A stretch of DNA of 64,000 nucleotides, from the IMG/VR virus record IMGVR_UViG_3300029258_001887; one strand, given 5' to 3'. The stretch's first letter is position 1; every line of letters starts with the position of its first letter. The notes under the pieces are model-generated. The model was given only the letters and a program-made list of their open reading frames with translations, searched no databases and was not told where the DNA came from. Position numbers and translations under genes: made by a program. Below, one piece after another: positions 5,235 to 55,153 of the stretch. This DNA is from a virus.

Positions 5235-6545
5235 CTCATTGGTCACTCCCTCTAGTAGACAGTTGTGTTCACGCTCGCAGGAACCGCACATTGGAGTCCC
5301 ACAGTGCTCACATGAGTTATCGTTACACCTATTACAGACGGTCTTGTCGCATTCAGAACACGTCTCCTGACACCCCTTGCAGATGTCCTGGCTACATTCC
5401 TCGCATCTTTCATCGACACAGGCCGAGCAACACTCGTCTCCACAACACCCGCATGTGATTGTGCAGTCCTGACACACGGAATCTCCGCAGTACGCACATG
5501 CCGACTTGCACTCGTCACAATATGCCCCGACGCAGATAGCGCATCCGCTCACACACGACGAACACATTTGGTTATCGCAATCATGACATGTGCTTCCACA
5601 TCCATGACAGAGTGTCTCTTGACAACCATAACACGTTGTGCTACATTCACCGCAACGCCACTCGCCGCATTCCGTGCAGCATCCACCACCGACATCGCAA
5701 TACTCGCAGTAGTTGTTCTGACATCCTTCGCACCAGCAACCGCTTTCGTAGCTACGCCACTCTTCGCATCCCTCACAGTAAAACTGACCCTCATGATCTG
5801 GATCGTACCATTCACTCAATCGTTCGTATGGCGAAGCCTCGTTATACGTTCGCAGAACTGCTTCGATGACCCTGAAGTAGTCCTCTAGCCGTCCTTGACA
5901 CAGAGCATCCTGAGAAGGAAGGCCACCAGCGCCGATACAGAGCTTACCGCCGGACACATGTGGATGAGAGTATCCGCCTGGAGATTCAATTTCGTTGATC
6001 GATTCGATACGAAGACTGTCCAGGGGATGTGAGAGGTTGACGTGTATCCAGAAATCCCCCAGGAACACTTCCTCGTGCTCATCGCTCAGGGTAACATCCT
6101 TGACCAACACGGACAGGACATTGCACCTGAACTTGACTTCTGGCCACGCGCTGTTTATTATCCGAATTTCGTCGATTGCTTCTTTGGGCGACAGCACGGT
6201 GACGATCTGTTTGGTTACCAATGACTTGAGCATTGCTGTGGCACTCTGTGTGCCGTGTATGACATCATACCCAAGGTCTGGGATCAGAGCGGTGGCGATT
6301 CTCTCATACGCCGATGCACAGACAATACCCATGTGTGGTTCTGTGTCCCACTCGTTTTGCTGGATTCTCTGCGTTGAGCCAGTGAAGAACCTTCCAGCCC
6401 ACATCTCCATCTGTGACGCTTTGTCGTTCACCCTACGGAGACAGTCGAGGATAGACGTTTTCCCAGAATCCACAGGAGACCGGGCCTGAGACAGCAACCA
6501 ATCCCTGTATTTTATGGCCGCACGCCGTATCAGCTTTTCGTTCAT
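5226..6545 (-). CDS. prokaryotic E2/UBC-like conjugating enzyme fused to a Cys-rich (about 21 CxxC) C-terminal array
   Basis: HPHVSGGKLCIG resembles the UBC HPN...C active-site motif; located with Ubl, JAB and E1. Confidence 0.75.
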   Translation of the reverse strand: MNEKLIRRAAIKYRDWLLSQARSPVDSGKTSILDCLRRVNDKASQMEMWAGRFFTGSTQRIQQNEWDTEPHMGIVCASAYERIATALIPDLGYDVIHGTQSATAMLKSLVTKQIVTVLSPKEAIDEIRIINSAWPEVKFRCNVLSVLVKDVTLSDEHEEVFLGDFWIHVNLSHPLDSLRIESINEIESPGGYSHPHVSGGKLCIGAGGLPSQDALCQGRLEDYFRVIEAVLRTYNEASPYERLSEWYDPDHEGQFYCEGCEEWRSYESGCWCEGCQNNYCEYCDVGGGCCTECGEWRCGECSTTCYGCQETLCHGCGSTCHDCDNQMCSSCVSGCAICVGAYCDECKSACAYCGDSVCQDCTITCGCCGDECCSACVDERCEECSQDICKGCQETCSECDKTVCNRCNDNSCEHCGTPMCGSCEREHNCLLEGVTNESS

Positions 6546-16633: not shown

Positions 16634-18072
16634 TTTGTACCCCCTTTGTAGTACAAGACGTTAGCTAGCGCCACCACACGACGATAGCCCACAAGATTCA
16701 AGGAATCAGGTACGCTTTTTGTATCTAGCGCCACCCTCACCCACTCTGCCCCACGCGCCACCACCAACCCCCACCGACCAGTGCAGAATCGTATATAGGA
16801 ACACACACAGGCCAAACTAGACTAGGATCGCTCTTGACTTTGCAGTGCTTCGCAACCCCGTTTTTGACCCTGTGAGCCCCGATTTTGCGCCAGTCAGCTA
16901 TCATGCCCCCACTAACAAGAACACCAAGCCCCACGCAAGCCTGAGCGAGCCAGCGTTTCTTGAAGCTCGATTTTGTACCTGCATCAGAGGCACACCAAGA
17001 CTACCCCGAAAAACCCCGGAAAGTCTCAAAAAAACCCCGGATAGTTTCTCAGGACAAGGTGTAGTTTGAAAGGGTCGATAACAGCGCCAGCAGCGCAGCA
17101 AGAAATCCCTGACGAGAACGCACAGTCGATGCCGTAGAGGCTTGGACCTATGCGCCCATCAGGGACTTTTTGCCACGCTGCCAGACCGTAATCTGACAAC
17201 GTGACTTTATGACTCACGCCCCGGTGAATTCTCGCTGGCAATTCATGACTCCGGGACGGTCTCGTTGGAGTCTTGTTTTAACGACTGATCGAGTCGAGAC
17301 TGCCGCGCCAGTGCGGTGGTTCAGTTTATTCAACCCGTCCGTCGTGTCGTGTCGTTCGGCTACATCAGAATCGGGCAGACGCTATCACACAGCGCGCCAC
17401 GAGACTGAGCCATTCCAACAAACCTAGAACCGCGCCACTATCCAACCCGCCGACCCTCGCGCCCTCAGCAGGGACGTTTCAGACCTTTGCGAAAGAAATC
17501 GTTGTGACGAAATTTACAGGGTTTGTTATTGGAAATGCCTATCCCACGACAATGTTTGAAGCCTACACCAGACGTTACGGCGGATTCCCATGACGGACCG
17601 TAGAATAGTCAACACGACTTGTCCTTTTGCGTCTTGCTGCCCCAATGCTGAATCGGAGCCCATTGCCAGACGTACAAGGAATCGTGCAGACGATTCGCCA
17701 CTTATCCCGCCCACGCCATGACGGCGCAGACCGAGCCCGCATTTCGGACTCTGCGTTTTGCCGCTGCTCAGGACTGGCGTTCGACCGATAACCGTTGACC
17801 CTTTTCAGACCCGGAGCGCACGTCCTGCGCGCCTGACAGACCCTACCGAGGCGACTATCGGACTACTACCCAACCCCTTCCGGGAATACCCGACGCTTAT
17901 CGGACCCCCCGCTGTGGTTGGTTATGGGAACCGCTGACCCTAGATGGTGGGCCTATAACGACAGGGTGCTACCCTGACAAGCGATTCAATCCAGACTTTA
18001 AGCCTGAATGCCCATCGGTCCACGCCCCCAGCGCTCGACTAGGGGCGCGGTGCGGCAGGCACTCCGCAGAGA

Positions 18073-18384
18073 CTACTTGCCCAGTGCGCTGAACGCCTTG
18101 CGAGTAGCGCCGACGCTGTTCCGGCGACCGAGCAGACTCTCGGCAATCACCGCAGCATTATCGGAGCCGAACCCGAGACTCTTATCGGGCGTGTACCCCG
18201 CGCCTTCCTCGATCTGACGCTCCAAGACTTCCCACGCTTCCGTGAGCGCGGCGATGGCGTCGTCGAGACTGTCGTACCCGGACGCGGCATCGACGATGCG
18301 CTTCGCGCCACGGTAGACGGCAGCGTTGGCCAGAAAAGTATCGGACCCAAACTCGACCTGCGTTCCGGTGGCATTATCGGACAT
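18073..18384 (-). CDS. hypothetical early protein
   Basis: GGGAG RBS; downstream of a sigma70 promoter. Confidence 0.55.
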   Translation of the reverse strand: MSDNATGTQVEFGSDTFLANAAVYRGAKRIVDAASGYDSLDDAIAALTEAWEVLERQIEEGAGYTPDKSLGFGSDNAAVIAESLLGRRNSVGATRKAFSALGK

Positions 18385-18610
18385 CTTACGTCTCCCTACA
18401 GGTGACGCCCGTCCCATTATGCCCAGACTACCCCGTCCAGACTATAGGACGGGCAAGTAGTGAACCAGACACAGAACAGTTATTCGGACCTACATTGCAC
18501 AGGCCACTTATTATCGGCGGTTCTGATAACCGCGTCGGGTTGCGTCCGAAAACACGCGCCGGACCCCAACGTCCGTTTTCGTGTTCTCGTTTTCTTTAAT
18601 CTTACATTAT

Positions 18611-18639
18611 ACTATACCCCTAGTTATACAAAAGGTCAA
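18611..18639 (-). promoter_or_regulatory. sigma70-type promoter TTGACC-N17-TATAGT
   Basis: Consensus match with upstream A-tract. Confidence 0.6.
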
Positions 18640-19442
18640 TGCGAGATCCGTTTTTTTTCATCGGCGTTTTTGGGCTTCAATCCACGATCTTATCGCACTT
18701 CGACCGATAATATCGAATTATAACAACGTCCGCTTTCGTGTGTCCGATAATACCGACCTTTTTGAGCTAGTCCGAGAAAACCCCGTTTTTATACGCCCAG
18801 AAGGTCGATTTTCCCGGACCTTCCGATAAAACAGCTTACGCTAGTCCTATAACTCGGCCACTTCGTCCGATAAAACCGGCCTGGAGCGGAAAACCGCGAT
18901 ATTATCTACCCTTTCCGATAATCTGCACGTCCGAATGTGCAAAACCGCCCGCAGATACAAGAAAACGTGGACATTATCACACACACCAAACTAGTTCCCG
19001 GACAGAACCGATAAAACGCCCGGCGCAAAGTCCGATAAATTACTGGGTCCGCTCCTTGGTCCGATAACCTTTGCCCGACGCAAAAGGGTCCGATAACGTC
19101 CCGATATGCAAACGTCCTATAACTTCATTCTGGCTGTAGTCCGATAACTCGTGCTTGCGCTATAGTCCCATAATATAGCGCTATGGACCTATAACCTTTC
19201 ACGGGCCAACGTCCGATAACATAGCGCGGTCGGCCTATGTCCGATAACTCCGAGGCATCGGTTGTTCGTCCGATAATGTCACGTTTTTTCGCAAAAAAAC
19301 TCACATTCGATATTCTAGGCCACGTCCTAGAATATCATGCACACGAGCACACAGGGTAAATGATTCCTGGTCAGGTCCGATAAAAGCTCACGGCGGAACG
19401 TCCGATAATTCGGAACGTCCCAGCGAGCCCCAAGGTCCGATA

Positions 19443-19634
19443 TCACGTCGTGGTCCGAATAAGATGCGGAGTATGCCACGTCCGAGAACCACTAACCATG
19501 CGTTGAAATCCTAGTTCAATTATTCTAGGGTCCGATAGCTCGTCGTCGCCAGCCGTAAGGTCCGATATGATGCCGAGGGCCTCTTGGTCCGATAGCTCGT
19601 CGTTGTCCAGTCTTACTGCAATGTACCTTGCCAT
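19443..19634 (-). CDS. hypothetical early protein
   Basis: MARYIAV..; GGGG RBS; LSD tripeptides produced by the repeat. Confidence 0.5.
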   Translation of the reverse strand: MARYIAVRLDNDELSDQEALGIISDLTAGDDELSDPRIIELGFQRMVSGSRTWHTPHLIRTTT

Positions 19635-19778
19635 GTTATCGCCCCTACCACATTGCCAAGGTTATCAGAACCATGTAAAGTACCGTTTTAATCCAGAATC
19701 GTGTCTCACGTCCCATAATTCGGTCCTCCCCAGAGCGAGGTAGGGTCCGAAAACCCTACCCCGCCCAACGTCCGAGAA

Positions 19779-20153
19779 CTACATGCCAGCGTTTCCGCAC
19801 GCATCGTGCGCAGTTATCGGGCGAGCCGAAGCATTATCGGCCACTAGGCGCTCGTCGAATCGGCCTACGTTATCGGCCTCGTCCACGTCCGAGAACATGA
19901 GCTTGCCGATATACCCATAATTGTTGCCCAGATTGCGTTCCAGTGCTGCTTTAGCTCGTTTCTTGGTGGTCCCAAAACCACACGCGCCGTAGGTCCGAGA
20001 ATGAAACGGACCAACCACTTCCGCCCGATAACCGTGGGCGCACTTAACGTACCAGTATTGGACCGTCCGCTTTCGGGACAGTTTATACTGGATTGCTTCG
20101 TCCGATAGTGCCACACGACCCGTCTGCCCGATAACTTTCTGCTTGGTTGTCAT
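19779..20153 (-). CDS. hypothetical early protein
   Basis: GGAG RBS; directly downstream of a consensus promoter. Confidence 0.6.
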   Translation of the reverse strand: MTTKQKVIGQTGRVALSDEAIQYKLSRKRTVQYWYVKCAHGYRAEVVGPFHSRTYGACGFGTTKKRAKAALERNLGNNYGYIGKLMFSDVDEADNVGRFDERLVADNASARPITAHDACGNAGM

Positions 20154-20199
20154 CGTAAATCTCCAAGGTCCGAAAAAGTATCGTTTTCCCTTACACTAT

Positions 20200-20227
20200 A
20201 TTATAGCATATACCAGCAGGATGTCAA
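20200..20227 (-). promoter_or_regulatory. sigma70 promoter TTGACA-N16-(TGc)TATAAT
   Basis: Perfect hexamers plus extended -10 and upstream A-tracts. Confidence 0.75.
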
Positions 20228-20584
20228 GCCCGATAACGAGTTTTTTTCTGGTTTTCTTGCGTCCGATAATCTGCGCCGGATTCTCTCGCGCTGAGATTTC
20301 GTGGTCCGATAACGGAACCGGTCGAATACCGATCGGTTGGTCCCATAACGATTGCAGCACCAGAGCAGTAGTCCGATAACTCCGCACACAACGATGGGGC
20401 CGATAAACTCCCAGATGATTCCGATAACAAACGTCGCGCCGATGATGATTCCGATAACCGACAAGAACAGCTTTGTAAAGTATGAGTAAACTTCCCAGCC
20501 ATCGGGTTTGGCCCGATAATTCTCATCGTTTTTCTTGGTGGCGATAACCATGTCGGAATAGTCCGGTATCAAATCAGGCCCCAT
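20201..20584 (-). CDS. small membrane protein
   Basis: AGGAGG RBS; two hydrophobic segments built from VIG/IIG repeat-encoded tripeptides. Confidence 0.5.
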   Translation of the reverse strand: MGPDLIPDYSDMVIATKKNDENYRAKPDGWEVYSYFTKLFLSVIGIIIGATFVIGIIWEFIGPIVVCGVIGLLLWCCNRYGTNRSVFDRFRYRTTKSQRERIRRRLSDARKPEKNSLSGLTSCWYML

Positions 20585-20609
20585 AACGTCCTCCTTTCGT
20601 GTCCACTAT

Positions 20610-20638
20610 ATTATACCATGCAATCGCCCAGAAGTCCA
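20610..20638 (-). promoter_or_regulatory. sigma70-type promoter TGGACT-N17-(TGg)TATAAT
   Basis: Extended -10 plus upstream A/T tracts. Confidence 0.6.
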
Positions 20639-20941
20639 GGTCCGATAACGCCTTTTTTCGGAAAAATCTTTTGGTCCTATAATGTGCCCCGCTGCGATGC
20701 GCCACGCCCTATGATATTCCTGGCACCATCCGATAATTCCATGCAAGAAAGCACACACACGAAACCATTATACGCCACGTCCTATAATCGCGCACGGCTC
20801 AACGTCCTATAATTCTGAACGTCCTACCGAGGCCAGGGTCCGATAACACACACCAAACTGCTTCTCACATTATCGGACCTTCGCGCACGGCCCAACGTCC
20901 TATAACTCCAGCAGGTCGTCGCCGGTCAACGTCCGATAATC

Positions 20942-21199
20942 TTACAGGATCGGTCCTCCGATAACATTGTTTGCGTATTCCCGAAATCCACCCGCACGTC
21001 TGATAACGTCCATGTCAACGTCCGATACTGTCCATTCTATTGTACCGATGCAACATTCCGATAATGGTAGGTGATCCTGGGTATGGTCCGGTAACCGATT
21101 CCGCAGGATGCCGTCAATTATCGGTCGTTCCCATAATGTTCCTGCTGCTTCCGCTATCACTTGAAATTCTTCTGGTCCGCTAACTCGGTATCTTGCCAT
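20942..21199 (-). CDS. hypothetical early protein
   Basis: MARYRVSG..; GGGAG RBS. Confidence 0.5.
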   Translation of the reverse strand: MARYRVSGPEEFQVIAEAAGTLWERPIIDGILRNRLPDHTQDHLPLSECCIGTIEWTVSDVDMDVIRRAGGFREYANNVIGGPIL

Positions 21200-21399
21200 G
21201 TTATCGCTCCCTTCAACGTCTGATAATCTGGTCGCGCGGTACCCATTGTCCGATATTGTCGGCCATATCGGCGTCCGTTTTGGTCCAATAAATCTGCCAG
21301 TATTCACATCGTCGGCCCGGTTTAGTACGTCCGGTAAGATACCCAACCAGCGTATCGTGTCCGATAAGCGTAACAAGTGTCCCTTTAATCGGCTCCATG

Positions 21400-21630
21400 T
21401 TATCGCTCCCTTCTCAGTGTTCCGATAACTACTTCATTCCGTAGGGTATCGTATCCGATAACTTTCTCGGTTCCGTCCGATAGCGTAACAAACACGAACT
21501 CATGTTCGTCCGATAATAGCATCCCGAACAGTCTGCCGTAGGACATGGCGAGCGCGTCCGATAAGCCGTCTTCCCGTATCGCATCGGAGTTATCGGTCGC
21601 CGGAACTTCAAGTCTTGCTTTACCTAGCAT
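21400..21630 (-). CDS. hypothetical early protein
   Basis: AGGAG RBS. Confidence 0.5.
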   Translation of the reverse strand: MLGKARLEVPATDNSDAIREDGLSDALAMSYGRLFGMLLSDEHEFVFVTLSDGTEKVIGYDTLRNEVVIGTLRRER

Positions 21631-21644
21631 GGTACGTCTCCTGA

Positions 21645-21899
21645 TTATCGGGCAGAGCCCACAAGGTCCGATACTAGAATGTACTGCTCACAGGCCCGAT
21701 AACTCGGCCAGTTTTCGGGCGGTCGAAAGGCCGATATTCCCGGCAATTCACGAACAGGGTTATCGGTCACAGAAACGATCTCGGCTGATTCCGATAATTT
21801 CAGCCAGTCCACTAGGTCCGATACGTAAAGCGCGGGAACCACAGCGTACATTTTGTGCCGATAATCCGTAGTCCGATAGGTAACCAGCATCCACTTCAT
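21645..21899 (-). CDS. hypothetical early protein
   Basis: GGGGTG RBS. Confidence 0.45.
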   Translation of the reverse strand: MKWMLVTYRTTDYRHKMYAVVPALYVSDLVDWLKLSESAEIVSVTDNPVRELPGISAFRPPENWPSYRACEQYILVSDLVGSAR

Positions 21900-21911
21900 A
21901 GTTATCACCCC

Positions 21912-22094
21912 TTACAGGATACGTCCGTTATAGGAACCTTTACACCGATTAAAGCTCAGCCTGATTCCGTTTATCGCACCTAGCACAGCGATTCCAGCCA
22001 CAACGTACAGGCCGTTTATCGGATCATTCGATACCCAAGCCACAACGTCCGATACTGCGTTCTCGGCTGCTTGCTTCAAGGTCTGATAATCCAT
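21912..22094 (-). CDS. small membrane peptide
   Basis: AAGGA RBS; one TM segment; downstream of a promoter. Confidence 0.5.
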   Translation of the reverse strand: MDYQTLKQAAENAVSDVVAWVSNDPINGLYVVAGIAVLGAINGIRLSFNRCKGSYNGRIL

Positions 22095-22133
22095 CGTGTT
22101 TTCCTTTCGTGTTATCGTTTCCCCTACATTCTA

Positions 22134-22162
22134 ATTGTAGGATACAATCGGCAAGAATGCAA
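22134..22162 (-). promoter_or_regulatory. sigma70-type promoter TTGCAT-N17-TACAAT
   Basis: Consensus-like, with T-tracts upstream. Confidence 0.6.
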
Positions 22163-22584
22163 GAAACAAAAAGAAAAAAGTTGAGTCCGATAACCATACC
22201 TTGCATGTCATGCAAGAACATAGTCTGATAACACATCACGTCCGATAATTTTCTCGGATCGGTTGGGATTGGTTGGTCCGATAACTTTCGCTGGGTAGGG
22301 GTCCGATAACTCGGCTCTGGGGGTATGCCCGATAAATGCGCATGTCCGATAACTGGGGCGGGTCCGAAAACCGCTGGGGGTGCAATCACAACCGGGTCGA
22401 TTTTCTAAGCGGTACCCACTTTTCGTGTACACTCTTTCTCGTATCACCCGCCTTGTCGTCCACAATCCTGTGCATTACCCGCTTTACCGTCCACGATCCT
22501 GAACATGGGGGTACCCCTTTCTCAACCCCTGAATCAACCGCTTTATCAGACATGCCTTCACCTGAAAAAAAATCGGGGGGCTGT

Positions 22585-26968: not shown

Positions 26969-26986
26969 TAACGGAGAAAAGTGCTG

Positions 26987-28687
26987 ATGAAGAATCTCAT
27001 TTTGGGGCTACTGGTTTCTTTGTGTGTGGCTACTGTGCCGAGTACGGCGGATGCGTGTCATCACTCAATCAAATCTGTTACGCTGGAGCCGGTCACGGCT
27101 TGTCCTGGCGAAGAGGTTCAGGTTACCGTTCAGGTCGAACTTGACGGTAGGTGGTACGATGTTCGTAAGTGGAAGAGTACCAGTATCGATGGCGTCTGTT
27201 ACGATCACGATAACTATGTCAAGAACAACGGGAAGCAGACTTTTACCGAGACATTCATAATTGTTGCTCCTGACGAGTTTGGTCCTACCAGTTTGCAGAT
27301 CAAGACTTTTGCGGGCGACGACTGCACTTCCCATAGAAAGACGAAGAACGTCGATTTGAGCGTGATCTACTGTTGTCCGGTCTGCGAAGATGGGGACGAT
27401 TGCACAATCGAACAGGGCGATGGATATGTCACCATCACTTGTGGCGATGCGGTTGCCTACCTATACGACGGAGAGGATGGAGAGGACGGCCAGGACGGTG
27501 AAGATGGTGAGGATGGTGCTGATGGTGAAGATGGCGAGCAGGGGCCGCAGGGACCACAGGGAATTCCAGGTACGTCTTGTACCGTTGAGCAGGACGGACC
27601 GTGTGCTTACATCTATTGCGAAGACCAGACGAGTGCTGTGGTTTGTAATGGAGAGGACGGAGCCGATGGAGAAGATGGTGAGCAGGGACCGCCAGGAGAG
27701 CCCGGAGAAGACGGTGCTGACGGTGAATCCTGTTATGTCACTCAGGAAGGCGATTGCGCGGTAATCTATTGCGGTGGCGAGACTATGGCTACGATCTGCG
27801 ATGGTGCCGATGGCGCTGATGGCGTTGATGGCACGTCTTGCTGGGTCGAAGACCTACCTCGTAAGGCTGTCATTCACTGCGGTCGTTCCCAAGCTACCGT
27901 CTGGAATGGCCTGAGTTGCTGGGATTTGAACCAGAACCGTCGTCGTGACTTCTGCAAGCCGTGCATTCAGCAGATGTTCGACGGTGAATGTCCGACTACG
28001 TTCATTCTTGAGTATCCGTGTGAGGCTCCGACCGGGACGGTGAGCAAGGCTCGTCAGATAGCCAAGGTCTACGATGGGTCTACATGTGAGGTTGAGGTTG
28101 GCTGTGTTGAGTACATCATGAGTACGATGGACGTTGATGAAACAGCCGCTACTCAGATTTGCGACTACACCGAAGACACTAATGGTGATGGCGAGATTGA
28201 TATCCTGGACTGTCGCGGGGTCGATGGACAGGACGGCGATGATGGCCAAGACGGAGCCGATGGCCTCGATGGTGCCACTGGACCGCAAGGCCCACCTGGG
28301 CAAGACGGCGCAGATGGTGTTGATGGCCTAGATGGTGCCGATGGACAAGATGGCCCTCCTGGTCCGCAGGGGCCTCCGGGGCAAGATGGCCGCGACGGCG
28401 TTGACGGGATCGATGGCATTGATGGTGAAAACTGCGAAGTGTTCGATAATGGTGATGCAACGTGTTCGATCGTGTGTGCCGAGTCGGAGGTTCTGGTCCA
28501 GGATTGTGGTGTCGGCGCTGAGCCGCTGGAAGATATCCTGACTGGTTTCTTCCCCGAAGAGGAAGAGGTGATCGAGGAAGCGCCTAACCCTGGTGGGGTG
28601 TGTGGTGCATTCGGTGGTCTCACTGTGGTAGCCATGTTGTTACCTTTGGGTCTCATGAAGTTCCGTTCGAGGCGATACGGTGTCTGA
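26987..28687 (+). CDS. collagen-like Cys-rich cell-surface protein with signal peptide and C-terminal CG-TM-RR sorting signal
   Basis: N-terminal signal, (G-x-D/G-P-Q)n tracts, EF-hand-like DTNGDGEIDILD, C-terminus GGVCGAFGG-TM-KFRSRR. Confidence 0.8.
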   Translation: MKNLILGLLVSLCVATVPSTADACHHSIKSVTLEPVTACPGEEVQVTVQVELDGRWYDVRKWKSTSIDGVCYDHDNYVKNNGKQTFTETFIIVAPDEFGPTSLQIKTFAGDDCTSHRKTKNVDLSVIYCCPVCEDGDDCTIEQGDGYVTITCGDAVAYLYDGEDGEDGQDGEDGEDGADGEDGEQGPQGPQGIPGTSCTVEQDGPCAYIYCEDQTSAVVCNGEDGADGEDGEQGPPGEPGEDGADGESCYVTQEGDCAVIYCGGETMATICDGADGADGVDGTSCWVEDLPRKAVIHCGRSQATVWNGLSCWDLNQNRRRDFCKPCIQQMFDGECPTTFILEYPCEAPTGTVSKARQIAKVYDGSTCEVEVGCVEYIMSTMDVDETAATQICDYTEDTNGDGEIDILDCRGVDGQDGDDGQDGADGLDGATGPQGPPGQDGADGVDGLDGADGQDGPPGPQGPPGQDGRDGVDGIDGIDGENCEVFDNGDATCSIVCAESEVLVQDCGVGAEPLEDILTGFFPEEEEVIEEAPNPGGVCGAFGGLTVVAMLLPLGLMKFRSRRYGV

Positions 28688-37532: not shown

Positions 37533-38277
37533 AGTGTTCCTTGGCTTCCTCTAAGCAATCGGAGATTTTTTCCATGTGGTCGGCAACTTCGTTCGGGGTA
37601 GAACCGGCGAAGGTCAATTCCCAGAAGATGCTGGTGATGAAGCACCACAAAGTAGGCTGAATAGTCAGCTTGAATCCAGTACGACGGAAATCACGGTCGG
37701 ATTCGACGTATGGTGGGAAGAATTCTACCTCTGGCGAGACGCGAATGGGGAGATGGGCGAGGTTGTTGACAGGGGTGAACTCGATCGCATATCCTGTATC
37801 CTTGGGGCAGTCGTCGCCGCACTCGTGGAAATCGAGACTTTTGGACGGACAACCGGGGCCGATTCCATGGAAAGACATCAGGTTTGGCAAGTCGGCGATC
37901 TTCGGGTTTTCCCAATAGTTGTATCCATTGTCCATGATTGGACAACCGCTGTCGGGCTGATCTGTTGGCTTGCCGGTTTTCTTTTCCTTGCGAATGTCGT
38001 AGCTGGCGTGCCAGTATAGTTCGAGATATTCAACATCATCAACATCGTCTGGATCACGGTCGAGTTGAATCTGATCCCAGAACAGCTTGAACTCCAACAT
38101 ACCCATCGTTGCGAAGATGCCTGGGATCATTTGATCTGCATGATATACCAAGCGGAATAGATCGTAGAGCGTAAAGTCTTCGTCAACCTTGGTCACCGTC
38201 CATTGTAGATCGGTTGGCAAAAAGTCCTTGTAATATTCCTTTGTCAGATGTATGCCATCGCTTGCTGGATTACTCAT
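37483..38277 (-). CDS. hypothetical protein
   Basis: 264-aa ORF, GGGG RBS. Confidence 0.6.
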   Translation of the reverse strand: MSNPASDGIHLTKEYYKDFLPTDLQWTVTKVDEDFTLYDLFRLVYHADQMIPGIFATMGMLEFKLFWDQIQLDRDPDDVDDVEYLELYWHASYDIRKEKKTGKPTDQPDSGCPIMDNGYNYWENPKIADLPNLMSFHGIGPGCPSKSLDFHECGDDCPKDTGYAIEFTPVNNLAHLPIRVSPEVEFFPPYVESDRDFRRTGFKLTIQPTLWCFITSIFWELTFAGSTPNEVADHMEKISDCLEEAKEHFERRSDEESDDNPLVS

Positions 38278-38983
38278 AATCTACCCCCAAGTCTGCTGCC
38301 GTGGCCTTGATACAAGGCTCACTTACCTCGATGCCGACACAATCCAGACCCAATGCTTGGCACACCCTTGCTGTCGTGCCCGTTCCGAGGAACGGATCAA
38401 GGACTCGCCCCTTGGGGCGACAGTGACCGTTTACAATGCGCGTCACCAGAGCTTCTGGTAGCTGGGTCGGACACCACTTCCGCTTTTCTTTGAATGTACC
38501 GCAAACGCGCGGAACCTCCCAAACGTTCGGAGGCATTTTGCCTCCCTTGGCCGCTCTCTTGTCGTTGTACTTTGCCTGCCTGGCGCTGGGTATCTTGACC
38601 TTATCTGGTCGGATGTATTCCGAGTTGAGCCAGTATACGGGTCGGTAGCAGAGGGCATATTTCCCTCTGGTAGTCTGATCCTGTCCGAAGGTGTAATACC
38701 ACTGTAACCTTTGAATTAGCGGGATACCAACTGCTGTTACGGCGTTCTCGATAGCGCGTGTCCATTTTTCGTTAAATGTTAGGAAAATTGGACCTTTGGT
38801 CAAATCGGCCATCATTCCAAGCCACAATCGAAGGTTGGCTTCATATTTCCAGTCCGGTTGCCGGTCTGTAAATCCGTCGTATTTGAGACCAATATTGTCT
38901 GGCGGGTCGGCCACGATGAGATCAATTCTTCCCAGAGACGAGGCCGGGATCAGTTCGAATTTACCATGTATCAGTCTGATCAT
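38270..38983 (-). CDS. N6-adenine/N4-cytosine DNA methyltransferase (beta class)
   Basis: Motif IV variant ADPPDN; motif I VLDPFLGTGTT; PTQLPE. Confidence 0.85.
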   Translation of the reverse strand: MIRLIHGKFELIPASSLGRIDLIVADPPDNIGLKYDGFTDRQPDWKYEANLRLWLGMMADLTKGPIFLTFNEKWTRAIENAVTAVGIPLIQRLQWYYTFGQDQTTRGKYALCYRPVYWLNSEYIRPDKVKIPSARQAKYNDKRAAKGGKMPPNVWEVPRVCGTFKEKRKWCPTQLPEALVTRIVNGHCRPKGRVLDPFLGTGTTARVCQALGLDCVGIEVSEPCIKATAADLGVDYE

Positions 38984-39355: not shown

Positions 39356-39417
39356 CTCTATATATATAGAGGGGGGTTTTTATCGGACGTTACATATCGG
39401 ACGCGATTGTGTATAAT
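39356..39417 (+). promoter_or_regulatory. divergent control region: 16-bp palindrome, two TATCGGAC boxes, TGTGTATAAT promoter
   Basis: CTCTATATATATAGAG at 39356-39371; TTATCGGAC at 39380; ATATCGGAC at 39394. Confidence 0.6.
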
Positions 39418-39588
39418 TTTCGAGGGTGATAGAAATGAGTGACAAGAAAACACAGGTTGATTGCCGTTTGATTACTCGTGGGACAGACAAGGCGAACGCC
39501 AAGGCTATCGAGGATTTGAAGGTTCCCGATCCAGAACCGGCTGTTGGCGAGCAGGTAATCAAGGATGCGATGGAGGAAGGGTCAGAGG

Positions 39589-40146
39589 ATGACAGTCAGA
39601 CAGGAAATTCTTGACGAAGCACATCCGATCATCGAACGGTTAGCCACGTCTCGTAGCGCCAACGGTGCGTTCGCATATTACGAGAACAGTGATGTCTATC
39701 AAGAGGTGTGGCGAATGTGCTTAGAGGCCCTGGAAAGGTATGATCCACAGATAGGGCCAATCGAGAACTACCTAGTGAGACATGTCACCAACCGACTCAA
39801 GAACCTCAAGAGGGACAGCTACTTCCGTCCAGGCTCCGATGCTCCGAGTTCTGGCTTGGCACGCACTAGGATGAACTTGGTGAACGCACTACCGCTTGGT
39901 GGTGGAGATATCGCTGAGCAGGGTATGCTTCTTGGGTCTACTCCGATCAATACTGATCCTGTTGATCACCTATTGTGCGACGAAACTTTGGAATACATCC
40001 GAGATCGTATGCCGGAAAGTCTGATCGATTCGTTCGAAGATTTGATCGGCAACAACCGCGTTCGCAGTCCTGTTGTTGAAGAGATACGACAGAAGGTGGC
40101 AGAGATTTTGAGCGAGAGGGAGGAAGATGTCGGAAGCAAAGAATAA
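39589..40146 (+). CDS. phage sigma-factor-like protein
   Basis: Region-2-like DVYQEVWRMCLEALERYDP..ENYL..VTNRLKNLKRD. Confidence 0.7.
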   Translation: MTVRQEILDEAHPIIERLATSRSANGAFAYYENSDVYQEVWRMCLEALERYDPQIGPIENYLVRHVTNRLKNLKRDSYFRPGSDAPSSGLARTRMNLVNALPLGGGDIAEQGMLLGSTPINTDPVDHLLCDETLEYIRDRMPESLIDSFEDLIGNNRVRSPVVEEIRQKVAEILSEREEDVGSKE

Positions 40147-41038
40147 GAGATTGTCTTCCAACCCCAAGGCTTTGAAGCTTCTCGCTGATTGTGTCAAGCA
40201 AGGTCTCAGCGACAAGAAGATTCAACAGCGGTTGGCTCAGGAGTGTGGATATCAATGGACGCTGGATACTATTGGCCGACGCCGCCGTGCTATGGGTGTG
40301 ACTAAGAATGCTGGCCAGCCAGTTGGTGTTGAAGCTTTGGATGGTCCAATCCTTACCGTGCCGCCCCCTGGATTGTCTGATGGAGAAAAGGCCCGCTGGT
40401 TTAGAGATCAATTCAAAAAGACCCACCTTTATAAAACAATCCAGAGACAATTCGAACCAGAAGAAGTGGAGATGTACCTAGAAGATTTTGGTTTGCTGTG
40501 CTGTCAGTTTGAGGACATCGTTATCAGTGAGTTCATGCAGGTGGACGATTTCCTGAAGCACAGAATTCTTGTTGATAGGCAATTGATCCTCAGCCGTTCC
40601 CTACAGAGAGAAATCGCAGACCTACAAATGTGGTTTGTGGCGAATCCAAAGCCAGAGGATGAAGATAAAGAGGCCACCAAGTTTCGCATTTTACAACAGA
40701 GACAACTCGATGATAAGCATCGATATCTCAAAAGTGTCAATGATCGCTACGATGCCTTGGTCAAAGAGCGGCAGAAAATCTACAGTAGTTTGGCTGCGAC
40801 CCGTAAGGATCGCATGGATGAACTCAAGGGGGGCAAGGAAACCTTCTTGGAATTGGTCGGTAGGCTGCAACACTCGCAGGATGAAAGAGACAGGCAGGGG
40901 AGATTCGCTGAATTGACGAGAATATCTGCTGAAGACGTGAAGAATGAATTTCGTCAGCCGGTCGAATTCCCTGATGGCAGTGTCGAGCCAATTATCATGG
41001 ATGCGGATACGGACTTTGGGGAGGACGATGATGAATAA
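40127..41038 (+). CDS. HTH/coiled-coil protein, candidate terminase small subunit
   Basis: N-terminal HTH-like segment, long coiled coil, position at the head of the packaging module (inference). Confidence 0.45.
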   Translation: MSEAKNKRLSSNPKALKLLADCVKQGLSDKKIQQRLAQECGYQWTLDTIGRRRRAMGVTKNAGQPVGVEALDGPILTVPPPGLSDGEKARWFRDQFKKTHLYKTIQRQFEPEEVEMYLEDFGLLCCQFEDIVISEFMQVDDFLKHRILVDRQLILSRSLQREIADLQMWFVANPKPEDEDKEATKFRILQQRQLDDKHRYLKSVNDRYDALVKERQKIYSSLAATRKDRMDELKGGKETFLELVGRLQHSQDERDRQGRFAELTRISAEDVKNEFRQPVEFPDGSVEPIIMDADTDFGEDDDE

Positions 41039-44095: not shown

Positions 44096-44633
44096 ACTGA
44101 TTCTGCCGACCTATACAGTTATCAGAGACACCCGTGAACAGGAGGGACACGGGTGGTTCTTTGATGCGCATGTGCCAGATCGCCGTCCTCCACGATGTGA
44201 AGGTACGATTATCGAGACGGTAGAGACTGGCGACTACAGCTTGGTGGGGTACACAGACATTCTGGCCATTGAGCGCAAGTTTGCCTTTTCAGAACTCTGG
44301 GGTAACTATAGTGCTAAGAGACGACCGCAGTTTGAGGAAGAGATGGAACGGATGTCTAACATCAAGCACGCTTATGTCATCATCGAATCATCTATGACGC
44401 CCGACATCCTTGAATTGTCACCACCACAATTTTCCAAGGGCGTACCGGGTAAGTCGTTGGTCAGATGGCTGATGTATCTGTCAGCTAGGTATGGGGTGAA
44501 CATCATACCGGCAGGACAGTGTGGTCGCAAGATAGCTCAGATGATTTTCGAGGAAGTGGTCAGAGTAGAGAAGGATCGTTGGGTTCACCAGGAACCGAAG
44601 AAGAAGTCTGGAGAGAATTGCCTTGGGTGCTAA
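44088..44633 (+). CDS. ERCC4/XPF-like nuclease
   Basis: DTREQ..GDYS..IERK. Confidence 0.85.
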   Translation: MPRLILPTYTVIRDTREQEGHGWFFDAHVPDRRPPRCEGTIIETVETGDYSLVGYTDILAIERKFAFSELWGNYSAKRRPQFEEEMERMSNIKHAYVIIESSMTPDILELSPPQFSKGVPGKSLVRWLMYLSARYGVNIIPAGQCGRKIAQMIFEEVVRVEKDRWVHQEPKKKSGENCLGC

Positions 44634-46719
44634 AGTTACATTAGATGATCTACTGCATGGGGATCAGGGGAGATATGGATATCTGTTTCCATACCGTGAT
44701 CGTGTACCCAATGTGCGCAAACACATCTTTACCGATCTGAAGCAATCCAAAGACCCGCTCGACCAAGTAGTTGTCAGCCGAATGCTTGATATCAACTACA
44801 TAGGCTGGACAGCAAAGGTGGTCCTTGGGTTAGACCTATTCCCCATTCAGATCGCCACCCTCCAGATGATGTGGAATACCCCGTTCCCGATGCTGATCGC
44901 GTGTCGTGGTGGCAGTAAGTCATTTATGCTGGCGGTTTATGCTGTGCTAAGAGCACTACTCGATCCAGGGACCAAGATTGTAATCGTTGGTGCTGGTCTT
45001 CGACAGGCCAGATTGGTTTTTAACTACATTGATACCATTTGGAGTAATGCTCCTGTACTGCGCAACATTGTCGGCGGTGGCAAGAAGGCTGGTCCCAGGC
45101 AGAATGTAGACCTGTGCTACTTCCGCGTCGGTGAATCCATTATTTATGCCCTACCGATGGGTGATGGTACGAAGATTAGAGGTTTCCGCGCCAACGTCGT
45201 TATTGCTGACGAGTTTGCGTCCATTCCCGAAGATGTATTCGATGTTGTGGTTCGCGGTTTTGCTGCAACAGCCAAAACTCCTGTTGAGGAAGCAAAGCGG
45301 AGGGCGTTCGAAAAGCAACTAGCCAAATTCGATTTACCACCAGATGTCAAGAAAAAATTGACTACTGATGACGGCAAGATGCACGGTAACCAAATCGTCT
45401 ATTCTGGTACGGCATACTATGCATTCAATCATTTTGCCAAGAAATATCATATGTGGCAGGAGATCATTAGAAGCAAGGGCGACCCAGAGCAAGTGGCACA
45501 AATCTTCGGTGGAGAGAATTTGGTACCGGATGGCTTTAACTACAAAGACTATGCTATCATCAGAATTCCCCATACGCACCTACCAGATGGCCTGCTAGAC
45601 CCGAGACAATTGGCTCACGCCAAGGCTACTCTTCCTCGCAATATCTATCTTATGGAGTATGGCGCGGTCTTTGTTGCTGATTCCGATGGATTCTACCCAC
45701 GCAGCTTAATCGAAGGGTGTACTGTCGGTCCCAACAAACCCATTGAGACACCAGATGGGCCGATTACATTTACACCATTGATGAGGGCTCAATCGAAGCG
45801 TAAGTATGTTATGGGTATCGACCCCGCTGCCGAGAGAGATAATCTAGCTATTGTTGTGACAGAGGTATGGCCGAATCATTACCGTGTTGTCTATTGCTGG
45901 GCAGTGAATAAAAAGGAATTCATCCAGAGGAAGAAAAAGGGATTTATCACAGATGACGACTACTACGCCTATTGTTGTTCGAAAATTCGGGATGTAGTCA
46001 GGTTGTTCAATCCGGTTCGTGTCGAGATGGATAGCCAGGGTGGTGGCTATGCCGTTGCAGAGATGCTTCGCAACAAAAAGTTGATGGACATGAACGCGGG
46101 CGACTTCCCTATTTATGAAGTGATCGATTTCGATGATCCGAAGGATACTGACGGTGAGACAGATGGACGCCACATTCTCCATCTCGTCAAGCAAAGCACT
46201 GAGTACAACCAGGAAGCCAACGTAGCGCTCCACAAGAGCCTTGAGACACGAACTCTGTTGTTCCCCGCCTTCGATAGCGTGAAGATGTACGCTGCGATCG
46301 AGGCTGAAAAATCTGCCGGGATTGTTTTTGACACCTACGAGGAAAATGTATTCAATCTGGAAGAATTAAAGAATGAGCTTTGTACCATTCAGATGAGCGA
46401 AACAGCGACGGGGAAGGAACGATTCGATACCCCACAGGTTATCAAGCCTGGAGCGGTTGAAGGCAGGACACGAAAGGGGAGGCTCCGCAAGGACCGCTAT
46501 ACGGCTCTTCTGTTGTCTCACAAATACATCTATGATACTGATACCACCACTGACCATAGTATCGATTATGAGGACGTTCCGGGGAATATCGAGAAACGCG
46601 AAAAACCCCCAAAGAATGAGGCTATGTATCGCGGGGCCGGTGTGGGTAGGATGAGAAATTCCCATGAGACTCGCAATGGCGGGATTTTTAAGGCCGTGAA
46701 AAAAGGCAAGCGAATCTAA
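44623..46719 (+). CDS. terL: terminase large subunit
   Basis: Walker A RGGSKS, IRGFR, Walker B VVIADE, coupling motif SGT, RNase H-like GIDPA and C-terminal KDRY. Confidence 0.9.
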   Translation: MGAKVTLDDLLHGDQGRYGYLFPYRDRVPNVRKHIFTDLKQSKDPLDQVVVSRMLDINYIGWTAKVVLGLDLFPIQIATLQMMWNTPFPMLIACRGGSKSFMLAVYAVLRALLDPGTKIVIVGAGLRQARLVFNYIDTIWSNAPVLRNIVGGGKKAGPRQNVDLCYFRVGESIIYALPMGDGTKIRGFRANVVIADEFASIPEDVFDVVVRGFAATAKTPVEEAKRRAFEKQLAKFDLPPDVKKKLTTDDGKMHGNQIVYSGTAYYAFNHFAKKYHMWQEIIRSKGDPEQVAQIFGGENLVPDGFNYKDYAIIRIPHTHLPDGLLDPRQLAHAKATLPRNIYLMEYGAVFVADSDGFYPRSLIEGCTVGPNKPIETPDGPITFTPLMRAQSKRKYVMGIDPAAERDNLAIVVTEVWPNHYRVVYCWAVNKKEFIQRKKKGFITDDDYYAYCCSKIRDVVRLFNPVRVEMDSQGGGYAVAEMLRNKKLMDMNAGDFPIYEVIDFDDPKDTDGETDGRHILHLVKQSTEYNQEANVALHKSLETRTLLFPAFDSVKMYAAIEAEKSAGIVFDTYEENVFNLEELKNELCTIQMSETATGKERFDTPQVIKPGAVEGRTRKGRLRKDRYTALLLSHKYIYDTDTTTDHSIDYEDVPGNIEKREKPPKNEAMYRGAGVGRMRNSHETRNGGIFKAVKKGKRI

Positions 46720-46764: not shown

Positions 46765-46778
46765 GAATGGGGGTAGAA

Positions 46779-54766: not shown

Positions 54767-55153
54767 ATGTCTCTGCCCGACGCAACAGTAACAGATTTGT
54801 ACTCGCAGGGGAAAAGCTGTGCCGAAGTAGCCCGCTTGGATGGATGTAGCGAAACAGCCATGTATAATAGGCTAAAAGCACTTGGTGTCACGATGCGGAG
54901 TCGGTCGAAAGCGAATCAGATTTTTCCCGACTCCATTTTTATAGCCCTCTACAACCTGGGTCTCTCGGCTTCCCAGATCGGACGACTCCTGGGCGTCGAT
55001 TCCTCCACCGTGACAAAACGGCTGCACACGATCAAGTTCCCTTTGCGGTCTCGCGGCGTAGCCTGTCGGATTCGCTACAGTGAGAAAGAGTTTCAACGAC
55101 ATTTCATGGTACCGGACGTTCTGGATCGCCTGATGGAATTGGTGAGTGAATAA
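54767..55153 (+). CDS. tandem HTH protein
   Basis: Two HTH repeats; GGTGTATAAT at 54719. Confidence 0.65.
   Translation: MSLPDATVTDLYSQGKSCAEVARLDGCSETAMYNRLKALGVTMRSRSKANQIFPDSIFIALYNLGLSASQIGRLLGVDSSTVTKRLHTIKFPLRSRGVACRIRYSEKEFQRHFMVPDVLDRLMELVSE

Follow-up and report, generated by a model that had tools for sequence, protein, structure and literature searches.

An oriented box field covers the early genes

The window analysed here is a stretch of 64,000 nucleotides from a large marine-sediment phage whose group has large genomes of >150 kb. Its early genes lie on the - strand, and the early-gene region of 4.6 kb carries ~100 dif half-sites, most of them pointing one way (Table 1). The 63-aa ORF within this region is uncertain as a gene because no homologue was found, and the boxes of the 124-aa gene are position-conserved in relatives in part.

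The first-pass annotation had described a polar field of roughly 100 copies of a 9-mer over about 4.6 kb, and the counts bear this out. The copies of GTCCGATAA in the field comprise 28 exact matches and 71 with one mismatch, 82 on the + strand and 17 on the - strand, with the leftmost six or seven reversed. Exact copies number 29 in the window against 0.59 expected, a figure reached in 0 of 100 shuffles, and 28 of them fall in 17897–22352. When one mismatch is allowed, the window holds 116 matches against 13.9 expected, 99 of which lie in the field, and the orientation ratio in the densest 6-kb stretch of the window is 82:18 (binomial p = 6e-11). The 9-mer is indeed rare elsewhere, with a density of 17.4/kb inside the field compared to 0.28/kb in the rest of the window, where two more boxes form an outlier pair. 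The extended field consensus is a-(C/G)-GTCCGATAA-(C/T), in which C3 and A8 of the 9-mer are invariant. Start-to-start spacing has a minimum of 17 bp and is mostly 25–36 bp, with unique spacers and an overall frequency of one box per ~45 bp; the recurrence every 20–40 bp given earlier is thus roughly right, except for some gaps of 60–176 bp.

The right edge of the field lies ~250 bp left of the point at which leftward and rightward transcription diverge, in keeping with the reported proximity to the strand switch, and the cumulative GC skew minimum coincides with this divergence. Because the early genes are on the - strand, a box read along early transcription has the sequence TTATCGGAC. About half of the field is protein-coding, and coding and non-coding DNA are equally dense in boxes. 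Boxes inside genes occupy all three reading frames, spacers and strong sigma-70 promoters are overlaid as well, and 47 of the 57 exact in-gene boxes in the window and its relatives G001 and G002 are antisense to their gene. The proposed check for 10.5-bp periodicity revealed no 10–11-bp helical phasing among the field boxes (Rayleigh p > 0.15). The equal density, the use of all three frames and the lack of phasing point to selection on the DNA word rather than on peptides or promoters.

Table 1 Coordinates of the early region, its boxes and promoters, and the outlier operator.
Feature	Position	Strand	Remarks
Non-coding block	17470–18070	.	~80% nucleotide identity in G001 and G002; one-strand CAGAC array
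Box field	17783–22370	+	99 copies (≤1 mismatch) of GTCCGATAA, 82 on the + strand
Reversed sub-array, downstream (left) field end	17855–18382	-	Six or seven leftmost boxes, opposite orientation
Last early gene	18073–18386	-	80% identity to G001; start ATGTCCGATAAT; boxes reversed
Promoter TTGACC-17-TATAGT	18611–18639	-	
Promoter CGGACA-18-TATAAT	18717–18746	-	-35 element formed by the end of a box
Small ORF, 63 aa	19443–19634	-	4 boxes; gene status uncertain
Early ORFan gene, 124 aa	19779–20153	-	72% identity to G001; 8 boxes
Consensus sigma-70 promoter TTGACA-16-TATAAT, with TG	20200–20227	-	Box variant TTATCGGGC directly abuts the -35 element
Early ORFan gene, 127 aa	20201–20584	-	9 boxes
Promoter TGGACT-17-TATAAT	20610–20638	-	Box ends one base upstream of the -35 element
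Early ORFan gene, 144 aa	20942–21376	-	12 boxes; G002 homologue elsewhere in gene order
Early ORFan gene, 76 aa	21400–21630	-	Conserved in G002 and L027; 6 boxes
Early ORFan gene, 87 aa	21645–21908	-	Conserved in G001 and G002; 7 boxes
Early ORFan gene, 60 aa	21912–22094	-	Conserved in G001; 4 boxes
Two outlier boxes, TTATCGGAC and ATATCGGAC on +	39380–39402	-	Flank the -35 region of the sigma-factor/terminase-side operon promoter
TGTGTATAAT, -10 region of the same operon promoter	39408–39417	+	

Promoters, the outlier operator and the left edge

Four strong leftward promoters lie within the field, one of them consensus, as the earlier placement of the strongest sigma-70 promoters had indicated. 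At three of these early promoters a box abuts or overlaps the -35 element; boxes in general hold no fixed register relative to promoters. The exact outlier box occupies the same place in G001 and G002, and the first long ORF downstream of this later, conserved promoter (39565–40146) encodes a sigma-70 region 2 domain.

At the left edge, the core of the non-coding block (17722–18010, 289 bp) formed a separate assembly unitig. In four metagenome runs it was 2.5–3.7x as deep as the flanking sequence, and the assembly graph has no edges to match this extra depth, a pattern that a terminal repeat would produce. The segment is a hint in the direction of the suggested first-injected DNA or terminus. 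In a minor strain, 18017–18702 is swapped for 877 other bases, with one junction at a box. The contigs of the four runs, which hide rare variants, contained no box-to-box deletions or inversions.

The box is the XerC-side arm of dif

The 9-mer is identical, letter for letter, to the left (XerC-side) arm of chromosomal dif, which reads aA(C/T)GTCCGATAA over 11 bp. An exact GTCCGATAA-N6-TTATG occurs in 73 of 120 genomes of the phylum of G201 (61%), 51 of 121 Planctomycetota (42%), 35 of 101 Myxococcota (35%) and 18 of 121 genomes of the phylum of G202 (15%), mostly as a single copy per genome, whereas the reversed pattern, used as a control, matched 1–3 genomes per set. The phyla with this arm are Planctomycetota, Myxococcota and two Desulfobacterota-type phyla. 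All 20 of the 20 sites fetched were textbook 28-bp dif sites with A at -2 and C or T at -1. The phage boxes most often have these same bases in their flanks, and box plus flanks equal the 11-bp XerC-binding arm. The commonest field variants, GTCCTATAA, GTCTGATAA and GTCCCATAA, are the dif arms of other genomes, and the printed dif sequences of Myxococcus and Anaeromyxobacter carry the same arm (PMC2731167). By a rough estimate, coincidental agreement over 9–12 letters with the dif arm that four phyla conserve best would arise about once in 10,000.

The XerD arm and a full dif site are absent from the field, and the window has no copy of the core word TTATGTWAA. Neither box-N6-8-TTATG nor an inverted box pair at 6–8 bp was found in the window, G001 or G002. 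Since the partner arm is absent, the field cannot be an ordinary recombination site.

This identity displaces the DnaA-box lead, which rested on the shared TTATC: TTATCGGAC fails TTATNCACA at positions 6–9 and the logo lacks CACA. Replication-origin iterons and a partition centromere, also suggested at first, fit poorly. Such elements need 17–22-bp or phased short repeats in non-coding DNA beside an initiator or Par gene; here the core is 9–11 bp, half of the boxes lie in genes, phasing is missing, and the proteins neighbouring the field gave no Rep or Par family match. A sigma-28 promoter was considered because CCGATAA within the box satisfies the -10 element (G/T)CCGATAA; it fits poorly because the TAAA -35 element 13–16 bp upstream is absent, nothing is conserved upstream beyond -2 and most in-gene boxes are antisense, whereas such a promoter needs a downstream gene in its own direction. 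That CCGATAA(T) doubles as a sigma-28/SigD -10 element (PMC3865298) is an observation that counts against a pad for Xer proteins.

Conservation in relatives and recurrence in unrelated phages

The polar field is also present in five related phages (G001, G002, G003, G004 and G020). In G001 and G002, the two relatives aligned with the window, it lies at the equivalent map position, which answers the question of a positional equivalent raised in the first-pass annotation. The polarity flip at ~18.45 kb is kept in both, and the relatives retain field and flip despite partial turnover of box positions. Early-gene content and order vary: two of the genes are missing from G001, and the 144-aa gene is relocated in G002.

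At least eight unrelated phage lineages, with GC contents of 33–59%, cluster the same GTCCGATAA box, in clusters that are smaller than the field of the window and bidirectional. In several of these phages the clusters lie near contig ends, while the field of G002 is mid-contig. No common protein family, adjacent or genome-wide, was detected among these lineages, which suggests that the binder is very conserved and probably of host type. The two binders proposed earlier, 40127–41038 and 54767–55153, are both confined to this phage group, so neither can account for an identical box in phages unrelated to it; the two-HTH protein 54767–55153 remains a candidate within the group. In one lineage, the group C phages, a single full dif-like core is enclosed by the cluster, and the right arm of this core equals that of a Planctomycetota dif. 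The core of the E. coli-type XerC arm, taken as a control, is hardly ever clustered in viral contigs. Phages of hosts with that arm do not show such arrays, so that no general rule for phages and Xer emerges. A full-text search of the literature turned up no published account of dif-arm arrays in phages.

G001, G002 and G020 encode an Xer-like recombinase of 293–299 aa. Alignment of the G001 protein with XerD placed all catalytic residues, and the enzyme is predicted from this copy to be catalytically intact. Among the box-bearing viral contigs, a tyrosine recombinase of any kind is encoded on only 5 of 45, and among the near-complete ones on 2 of 16.

Discussion

The box with its flanks equals the 11-bp XerC-side arm of the chromosomal dif/XerCD system. 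However, dif occurs as one 28-bp site in which two inverted arms enclose a 6-bp centre, whereas the field consists of ~100 one-arm copies, mostly direct and without a centre. The XDS sites of Bacillus subtilis come closer, as isolated Xer half-sites with a non-recombination job, and the field is likewise one arm repeated without a partner; XDS sites, though, are few, chromosomal, near the terminus and made of XerD arms, in contrast to the ~100 copies of the XerC-side arm spread over phage genes and promoters. The attP sites of IMEX (CTX-phi, TLC-phi) and the plasmid sites cer and psi show that mobile elements borrow parts of dif in order to exploit host Xer proteins. The TLC-phi attP has one good arm only, and group C phages flank a dif-like core with extra arms. 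These are single recombination sites, unlike the field, which has no core, and accessory sequences of the cer/psi type bind other proteins, namely ArgR, PepA and ArcA. Mycobacteriophage stoperators are many short asymmetric sites, oriented with transcription, that silence phage transcription; they measure 13–14 bp, number 20–36 per genome, are intergenic and genome-wide, and serve as sites for the immunity repressor that the phage itself encodes. The field has an orientation bias, its boxes are neither confined to intergenic DNA nor genome-wide, and stoperators have no known link to dif. Shufflon-type sfx/Rci sites fit poorly, as they need inverted orientation and inversion variants; 82 of the 99 boxes are direct, and no inversion joints appeared in the contigs of the four runs, in which rare forms are hidden.

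In general terms the field resembles a docking platform for a protein that recognises a specific DNA sequence, which supports the idea of protein coating; the DnaA version is not supported, and an origin or a centromere fits poorly. Our leading explanation, to which we give about even chances, is that the field serves as an oriented, non-recombining pad or sink for an Xer-type recombinase and is tied to promoter control. We propose a high-capacity pad occupied by a tyrosine recombinase of the Xer family, which may come from the host as a XerC-type protein, from the phage as its Xer-like enzyme, or from both. Monomers bound all along the early transcription units, some of them covering or adjoining the -35 elements of the strong early promoters, would silence or tune early expression; as the boxes lack a fixed promoter register, promoter control is not the whole story. 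At 100 sites for every genome copy, the pad could double as a protein sink, which would tie the occupancy of the two-box operator at the sigma-factor/terminase-side operon to phage DNA copy number. A decoy sponge for a host DNA-binding protein, as had been suggested, ranks among the best readings. A simple sponge would not require the strong one-way polarity, which counts against a pad or sink. In E. coli, XerC has little affinity for its arm unless XerD is present, and a one-armed pad would therefore call for a recombinase able to bind well by itself. Xer proteins are also usually scarce, so that coating 100 sites may need the phage enzyme, yet few box-bearing contigs encode a tyrosine recombinase.

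The same boxes might instead be one-armed substrates for strand exchange by the phage Xer-like enzyme, or by host XerCD with a degenerate partner arm, making the field a hotspot for the swap, duplication or loss of early cassettes or a place where multimers are made or resolved. With nearly all sites pointing one way, crossovers between genome copies or related phages would stay collinear. The shufflon recombinase Rci uses one-armed sites. Strand exchange would also agree with the full catalytic residue set of the aligned G001 enzyme, the differing early-gene content and order of the relatives, the minor-strain replacement with its junction at a box, the full core inside group C clusters and the degenerate XerD arm of the TLC-phi attP (PMC9226527). 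We nevertheless regard it as unlikely, since the window, G001 and G002 hold neither a full core nor a closely spaced inverted pair, and direct repeats active within one molecule would soon delete the field. At one box per 45 bp, chance alone would put breakpoints at boxes, and the lack of box-to-box rearrangements in the contigs, which hide rare variants, adds a weak argument. A binder unrelated to Xer, with the dif-arm identity a coincidence, is rather doubtful too. Candidates are the group-specific two-HTH protein, which is conserved in G001 and G002, one of the phage sigma factors, a sigma-70 region 2 protein being encoded just downstream of the outlier boxes, and host sigma-28; CCGATAA(T) is the SigD/sigma-28 -10 element, as in C. 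difficile fliC (tgtCCGATAAt; PMC3865298). Some Acidobacteriota genomes carry ~40 copies of a longer promoter-like element that contains the box, but these may be an artefact of searching for this word. Against such a binder stand the restriction of the HTH and sigma proteins to this phage group and the rough rarity of a chance match and, for sigma-28, the missing TAAA at the proper distance in every phage group and a conserved GT before CCGATAA that differs from the optimum GC.

Xer-bound half-sites could also act in the manner of XDS, stopping or unloading DNA-translocating rings such as Smc-ScpAB, MukBEF, Wadjet-type defence complexes or FtsK on phage DNA, and one-way orientation would matter to a machine coming from one side. 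Passages of PMC11840125 and PMC10945525 that cite Karaboja 2021 state that XerD at XDS sites unloads SMC complexes and that an artificial XDS array blocks SMC translocation, and the field, dense and oriented, is a naturally occurring array of Xer arms. We consider this barrier very unlikely, because the precedent involves XerD and XerD arms while the field has the other arm, and a hundred sites are far more than it requires. Highly improbable is a polar DNA-end signal that works without Xer, protecting the first-entering or terminal 4.6 kb in a Chi-like manner or pausing or pulling entry. The field does start at the conserved non-coding block with its high-depth core, the polarity flip lies next to this block, and clusters lie near contig ends in several other phages; yet the field of G002 is mid-contig and the clusters of other phages are bidirectional. 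Chi words differ between bacteria, unlike the box word, which is constant over phages of very different GC.

Since many unrelated phages carry clusters of this half-site, phages probably recruit or soak up a near-universal, host-type Xer protein. A broader and distinctly unlikely reading is that the tailed-phage lineages, at least eight in number, use the most conserved dif arm as a portable Xer docking word, and that its expansion in this large-genome phage group into a 100-copy oriented, XDS-like array stops or unloads SMC-family extruders (condensin or Wadjet-type defence loop extruders) or FtsK. If this were true, the phage DNA itself would encode, over the incoming early region, a device for anti-defence or insulation made from the binding site of a housekeeping protein.

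Architecture of the box field

The exact 9-mer GTCCGATAA occurs 29 times in the 64-kb window, where 0.59 occurrences are expected, and 28 of these copies are confined to one interval. With up to one mismatch allowed, as in all counts of boxes not called exact, the window contains 116 matches against 13.9 expected, and 99 of them lie in the field (a + to − strand split of 82:17). The field has 17.4 boxes per kb and the rest of the window 0.28; density beyond the field was gauged from the window and from relatives. The logo is slightly longer than the 9-mer, a-(C/G)-GTCCGATAA-(C/T), with an invariant C at position 3 and an invariant A at position 8 of the 9-mer (logo positions 2 and 7, counted from zero). 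The spacers between boxes are all unique, with a minimum start-to-start distance of 17 bp and a usual distance of 25–36 bp. The field ends at 22370, ~250 bp from the point at which leftward and rightward transcription diverge and the cumulative GC skew reaches its minimum. Read along early transcription the boxes appear as TTATCGGAC, and six boxes at the downstream end of the field have the opposite orientation. The strand-split counts and the densities thus bear out the dense polar field described in the first-pass annotation, as do the unique spacers and the abrupt stop next to the strand switch.

Coordinates of the field and of associated features
Feature	Record	Coordinates	Remarks
Box field	window	17783-22370	
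Exact boxes of the field	window	17897-22352	28 copies
Boxes of opposite orientation	window	17855-18382	
CAGAC words	window	17450-18500	12 on +, 0 on −, 1.8 expected
Segment of excess depth	window	17722-18010	289 bp
Stretch with the last early gene	window	18017-18702	replaced in a low-abundance strain
Collagen-repeat protein	window	26981-28687	568 aa
N6/N4 DNA methyltransferase	window	38270-38983	also in two unrelated box-bearing phages, G028 and G037
Two-box site	window	39380; 39394	exact; one mismatch
ORF with sigma-70 region 2 domain	window	39565-40146	
Large terminase	window	44623-46719	
Portal	window	46767-48926	
Many-HTH-repeat protein	window	53391-54644	417 aa
Two-HTH protein	window	54767-55153	128 aa; GcrA-like and sigma region 4-like; conserved in G001 and G002
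Presumed tail proteins	window	55614-56831; 57373-60489	large; LDL-receptor class B/NHL-type beta-propeller repeats
dif-like core	G027	10478	
dif-like core	G038	54974	
dif-like core	G028	18738	
dif-like core	L040	~5330-5385	
dif-like core	L108		
dif-like core	L109		

Identity of the box with one arm of dif

A dif site consists of an XerC arm of 11 bp, a centre of 6 bp and an XerD arm of 11 bp (PMC9226527). In a survey of proteobacterial dif sites, that of Myxococcus xanthus reads AGGTCCGATAAC... and that of Anaeromyxobacter ACGTCCGATAAT..., and the sites of Geobacter, Desulfovibrio and Syntrophus carry one-letter variants of the 9-mer (PMC2731167). Bacterial genomes were searched with the pattern GTCCGATAA-N6-TTATG, for which chance predicts ~0.04 matches per genome. 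It matched 73 of 120 genomes from the phylum to which genome G201 belongs, 51 of 121 Planctomycetota, 35 of 101 Myxococcota and 18 of 121 genomes from the phylum to which G202 belongs, nearly always as one copy per matching genome, and a reversed-pattern control matched 1–3 genomes per set. Twenty fetched sites are textbook dif, aA(C/T)GTCCGATAA-tgtata-TTATGTaAAcT. The fetched dif sites share the flank bases most often seen on the phage boxes (A at −2, C at −1), and the most frequent box variants of the field are dif arms in other genomes. By a rough estimate, an arbitrary 9-mer would match this dif arm about 1 time in 10,000. These sequence correspondences make a solid case that the box is the XerC-side arm of dif. 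The likeness to a DnaA box suggested by the first-pass annotation found no support, since the letters in common are TTATC only. Neither a full dif site nor an XerD arm is present in the window or in the related contigs G001 and G002.

In the Planctomycetota dif sites (loci L370-L379), the XerC-side arm is invariant and it is the XerD-side arm that shows wide variation; proteobacteria usually present the opposite picture.

A scan of bacterial genomes for box pairs returned mostly chance pairs or tandem repeats. Each of four Acidobacteriota genomes (G046-G049; for example, loci L291-L325) carries cTATGTCCGATAATGCGCA ~35–40 times, in places as a tandem pair with an 18-bp offset; the copies are intergenic, lie near housekeeping genes and have a TTGCAC-like word 16–17 bp upstream. 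In the acidobacterial genome G065 the word TGTCCGATAA is enriched by word count, 58 against 7. The acidobacterial elements are lineage-specific, and it may be the search for the word itself that brought them up; no conclusion here draws on genomes G074 and G099. Gene starts were ruled out as an explanation, and a search for the dif of Acidobacteriota with cTATGTCCGATAATGCGCA-type elements did not identify it. In a further acidobacterial genome, G187 (L350-L369), a REP- or MITE-like palindrome of ~80 nt, whose outer ends are the box in inverted orientation, is present ~50 times; it was also met at loci L136, L200, L202 and L211.

Conservation of the field in related phages

The window is phage DNA with terminase and portal genes and has only distant kin in the phage collection searched, where no near-identical record was found. 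Relatives were recruited by scanning viral contigs for two closely spaced boxes. Two of them, G001 (96% complete at 160 kb, with ~80% protein identity) and G002 (119.6 kb), were aligned gene by gene with the window, and each has one field in the syntenic place. The first-pass annotation had held that the lack of a positional equivalent in relatives would count against its reading; G001 and G002 possess that equivalent. Three further contigs (G003, G004 and G020) have one localized field each, at a position unmapped relative to the window, and the polarity is identical across all five. G001 has 65 boxes (49:16) and G002 has 115 (90:25), both with the flip at the downstream end. In orthologous field genes, part of the boxes are conserved in position and part are lineage-specific, and the order and content of the field genes vary among relatives.

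Genes and promoters beneath the boxes

Genes to the left of ~22.5 kb are on the − strand, and the field is far from empty of genes, with seven or eight small ones on that strand. Searches of these genes against Pfam and PHROGs found no families, and an Rfam search of the field gave no match. The genes are nevertheless real, because their products are 40–80% identical in related contigs. Inside the field lie four sigma-70 promoters that are strong and leftward, including one with a perfect consensus, and at three of the field promoters a box abuts or forms the −35 element, with no fixed box-to-promoter spacing found. The region looks like an early, host-transcribed one.

Coding DNA (54 boxes in 2378 bp) and spacers (45 boxes in 2210 bp) have equal box densities, the boxes inside genes occupy all three reading frames, yielding xSDx, xIGx or xYRx, and no 10–11-bp phasing of the field boxes was found. 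It follows that selection acts on the word as DNA, over and above the underlying sequence. An RNA-level reading was rejected, as boxes also lie upstream of the outermost recognisable leftward promoter and take both orientations in the non-coding clusters of other phages. The field is an oriented, conserved one-arm dif array, overprinted on early genes and promoters.

A two-box site at 39.4 kb and the edge of the field

The sole exact box outside the field is paired with a one-mismatch copy, and between them lies the −35 region of a promoter whose −10 region is TGTGTATAAT. The first long ORF downstream encodes a sigma-70 region 2 domain, and the exact box is conserved in place in G001 and G002. 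At this site the box resembles an operator.

At the left edge of the field, contigs from four marine sediment and seawater runs were placed on 16–25 kb of the window. In every run the 289-bp segment forms a separate unitig with 2.5–3.7 times the depth of both flanks, and its only extra graph edges have 6–15x depth, far below what the excess requires. Around the segment lies a 600-bp non-coding block, conserved at ~80% identity in G001 and G002, of which the segment forms the core. Contig depth hints that the segment could be a terminal repeat, a physical genome end or an amplified segment; the terminal-repeat reading stays a hint because contigs carry no read-start information. If it is correct, the field would take up 4.6 kb right at a physical end of the genome, as its first part. 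The CAGAC words, within the same 600-bp block, form a second polar array adjoining the box field. In two runs, a low-abundance strain has 877 unrelated bases in place of the stretch with the last early gene, and one junction coincides with the box at 18702.

Box clusters in unrelated phages

The viral contig scan yielded 118 loci, and in at least 43 of them the clustered boxes are separated by unique spacers. Some apparent clusters were tandem repeats (periods of 12–28 bp), coding repeats or simple repeats; these are unrelated and were set aside. At least eight groups of box-cluster phages can be told apart; their gene sets differ, and their GC contents range from 33 to 59%. Their clusters are smaller (4–44 exact copies), mainly non-coding and often arranged as two arrays pointing apart, and box orientation relative to genes, as assigned with a crude gene caller, is mixed. 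The same search with a control 9-mer, TGCGCATAA, the core of the E. coli-type arm, returned almost only chance pairs. Arrays are predicted to occur where it is the XerC-side arm that is conserved and strongly bound.

No protein family is common to all box-bearing groups, either adjacent to the clusters or genome-wide, so a common binder is unlikely to be phage-encoded. The widest family occurs in at most 6 of 12 genomes, and none of the shared families is DNA-binding or cluster-adjacent across groups. A phage-encoded common binder that had diverged past recognition yet kept an identical target is implausible. The many-HTH-repeat protein of the window was rejected as a binder; it resembles a mobile element of HNH/HTH type and is present in G001 and absent from G002. 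A MazG-like protein shared among the phages had prompted the idea of a Z-genome, which was discarded as none of 23 contigs has PurZ.

Links to Xer in the phages

Three relatives (G001, G002 and G020) encode a protein of 293–299 aa that aligns over its full length with the models for XerD and XerC, below the equivalog cut-offs, and the G001 copy aligned with XerD retains all catalytic residues. A sequence of the phage Xer-like protein lies at L253:1183-2076. Any tyrosine recombinase is found in only 5 of 45 box-bearing contigs; a phage Xer was therefore rejected as the universal binder, and the phage enzyme is not the general partner.

One complete dif-like core (box-N6-TTATGT...) occurs in the phage group of G027, G038, L040, L108 and L109, where it lies mid-cluster, and in the unrelated phage G028. 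The right arm of the L040 core, TTATGTATCAT, is that of a planctomycete dif. The extra arms around the full core have the look of accessory sites belonging to a genuine Xer site. These tailed phages have no integrase, and the cores with their accessory arms may serve them for Xer-dependent integration or resolution.

Proposed function of the array

We propose that monomers of an Xer-type recombinase would bind the boxes, which, having no partner arms, would not recombine. The bound array would form a landing pad on the early promoters and transcription units and also a sink of 100 sites per genome copy, which could set the occupancy of the 39.4-kb two-box operator as phage DNA replicates. To this combined role of landing pad and sink tuning the operator, a proposal drawn from sequence, we give roughly even credence. 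In operation the field would most resemble a set of isolated Xer half-sites such as XDS, the XerD-only half-sites of Bacillus subtilis that unload SMC, but it uses the other arm, resides in a phage and is more than 10-fold larger. A full-text literature search found no relevant description of Xer half-site arrays in phage genomes.

Several other readings were weighed. Origins, centromeres, promoter arrays and dif sites each have a tested defining feature that the field lacks. A recombination hotspot, serving collinear cassette exchange or multimer handling, is an unlikely alternative. The binder could also be a different protein, and for a sigma-28-type factor it speaks that CCGATAA(T) is a SigD −10 element; the sigma-28 idea founders, however, on the absence of the −35 element and on the orientation of the boxes, and we attach only a small chance to such a factor or to a group-specific HTH protein. 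An XDS-like barrier to SMC-type or FtsK translocases has reported experimental precedent in arrays of the XerD arm (Karaboja 2021, as cited in PMC11840125 and PMC10945525) and appears distinctly improbable here. The field might also be viewed as an end-protection or DNA-entry signal, a reading that we consider very remote.

Few DNA–protein pairs of bacteria are as conserved as dif and the Xer recombinases, and to our knowledge mobile elements use them at single sites, for integration and for dimer resolution. A one-armed field of 100 copies, together with smaller clusters in many unrelated phages, points to a second, non-recombinational viral use of Xer, in which it could act as a regulator, a sink or a roadblock. 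With three frames occupied and one box per 45 bp, the case also shows how hard a DNA word can press on coding sequence. For uncultured phages the box should equal the dif arm of the host and so offers a clue for host prediction, and the field is a natural counterpart of the artificial XDS arrays for the study of SMC traffic.
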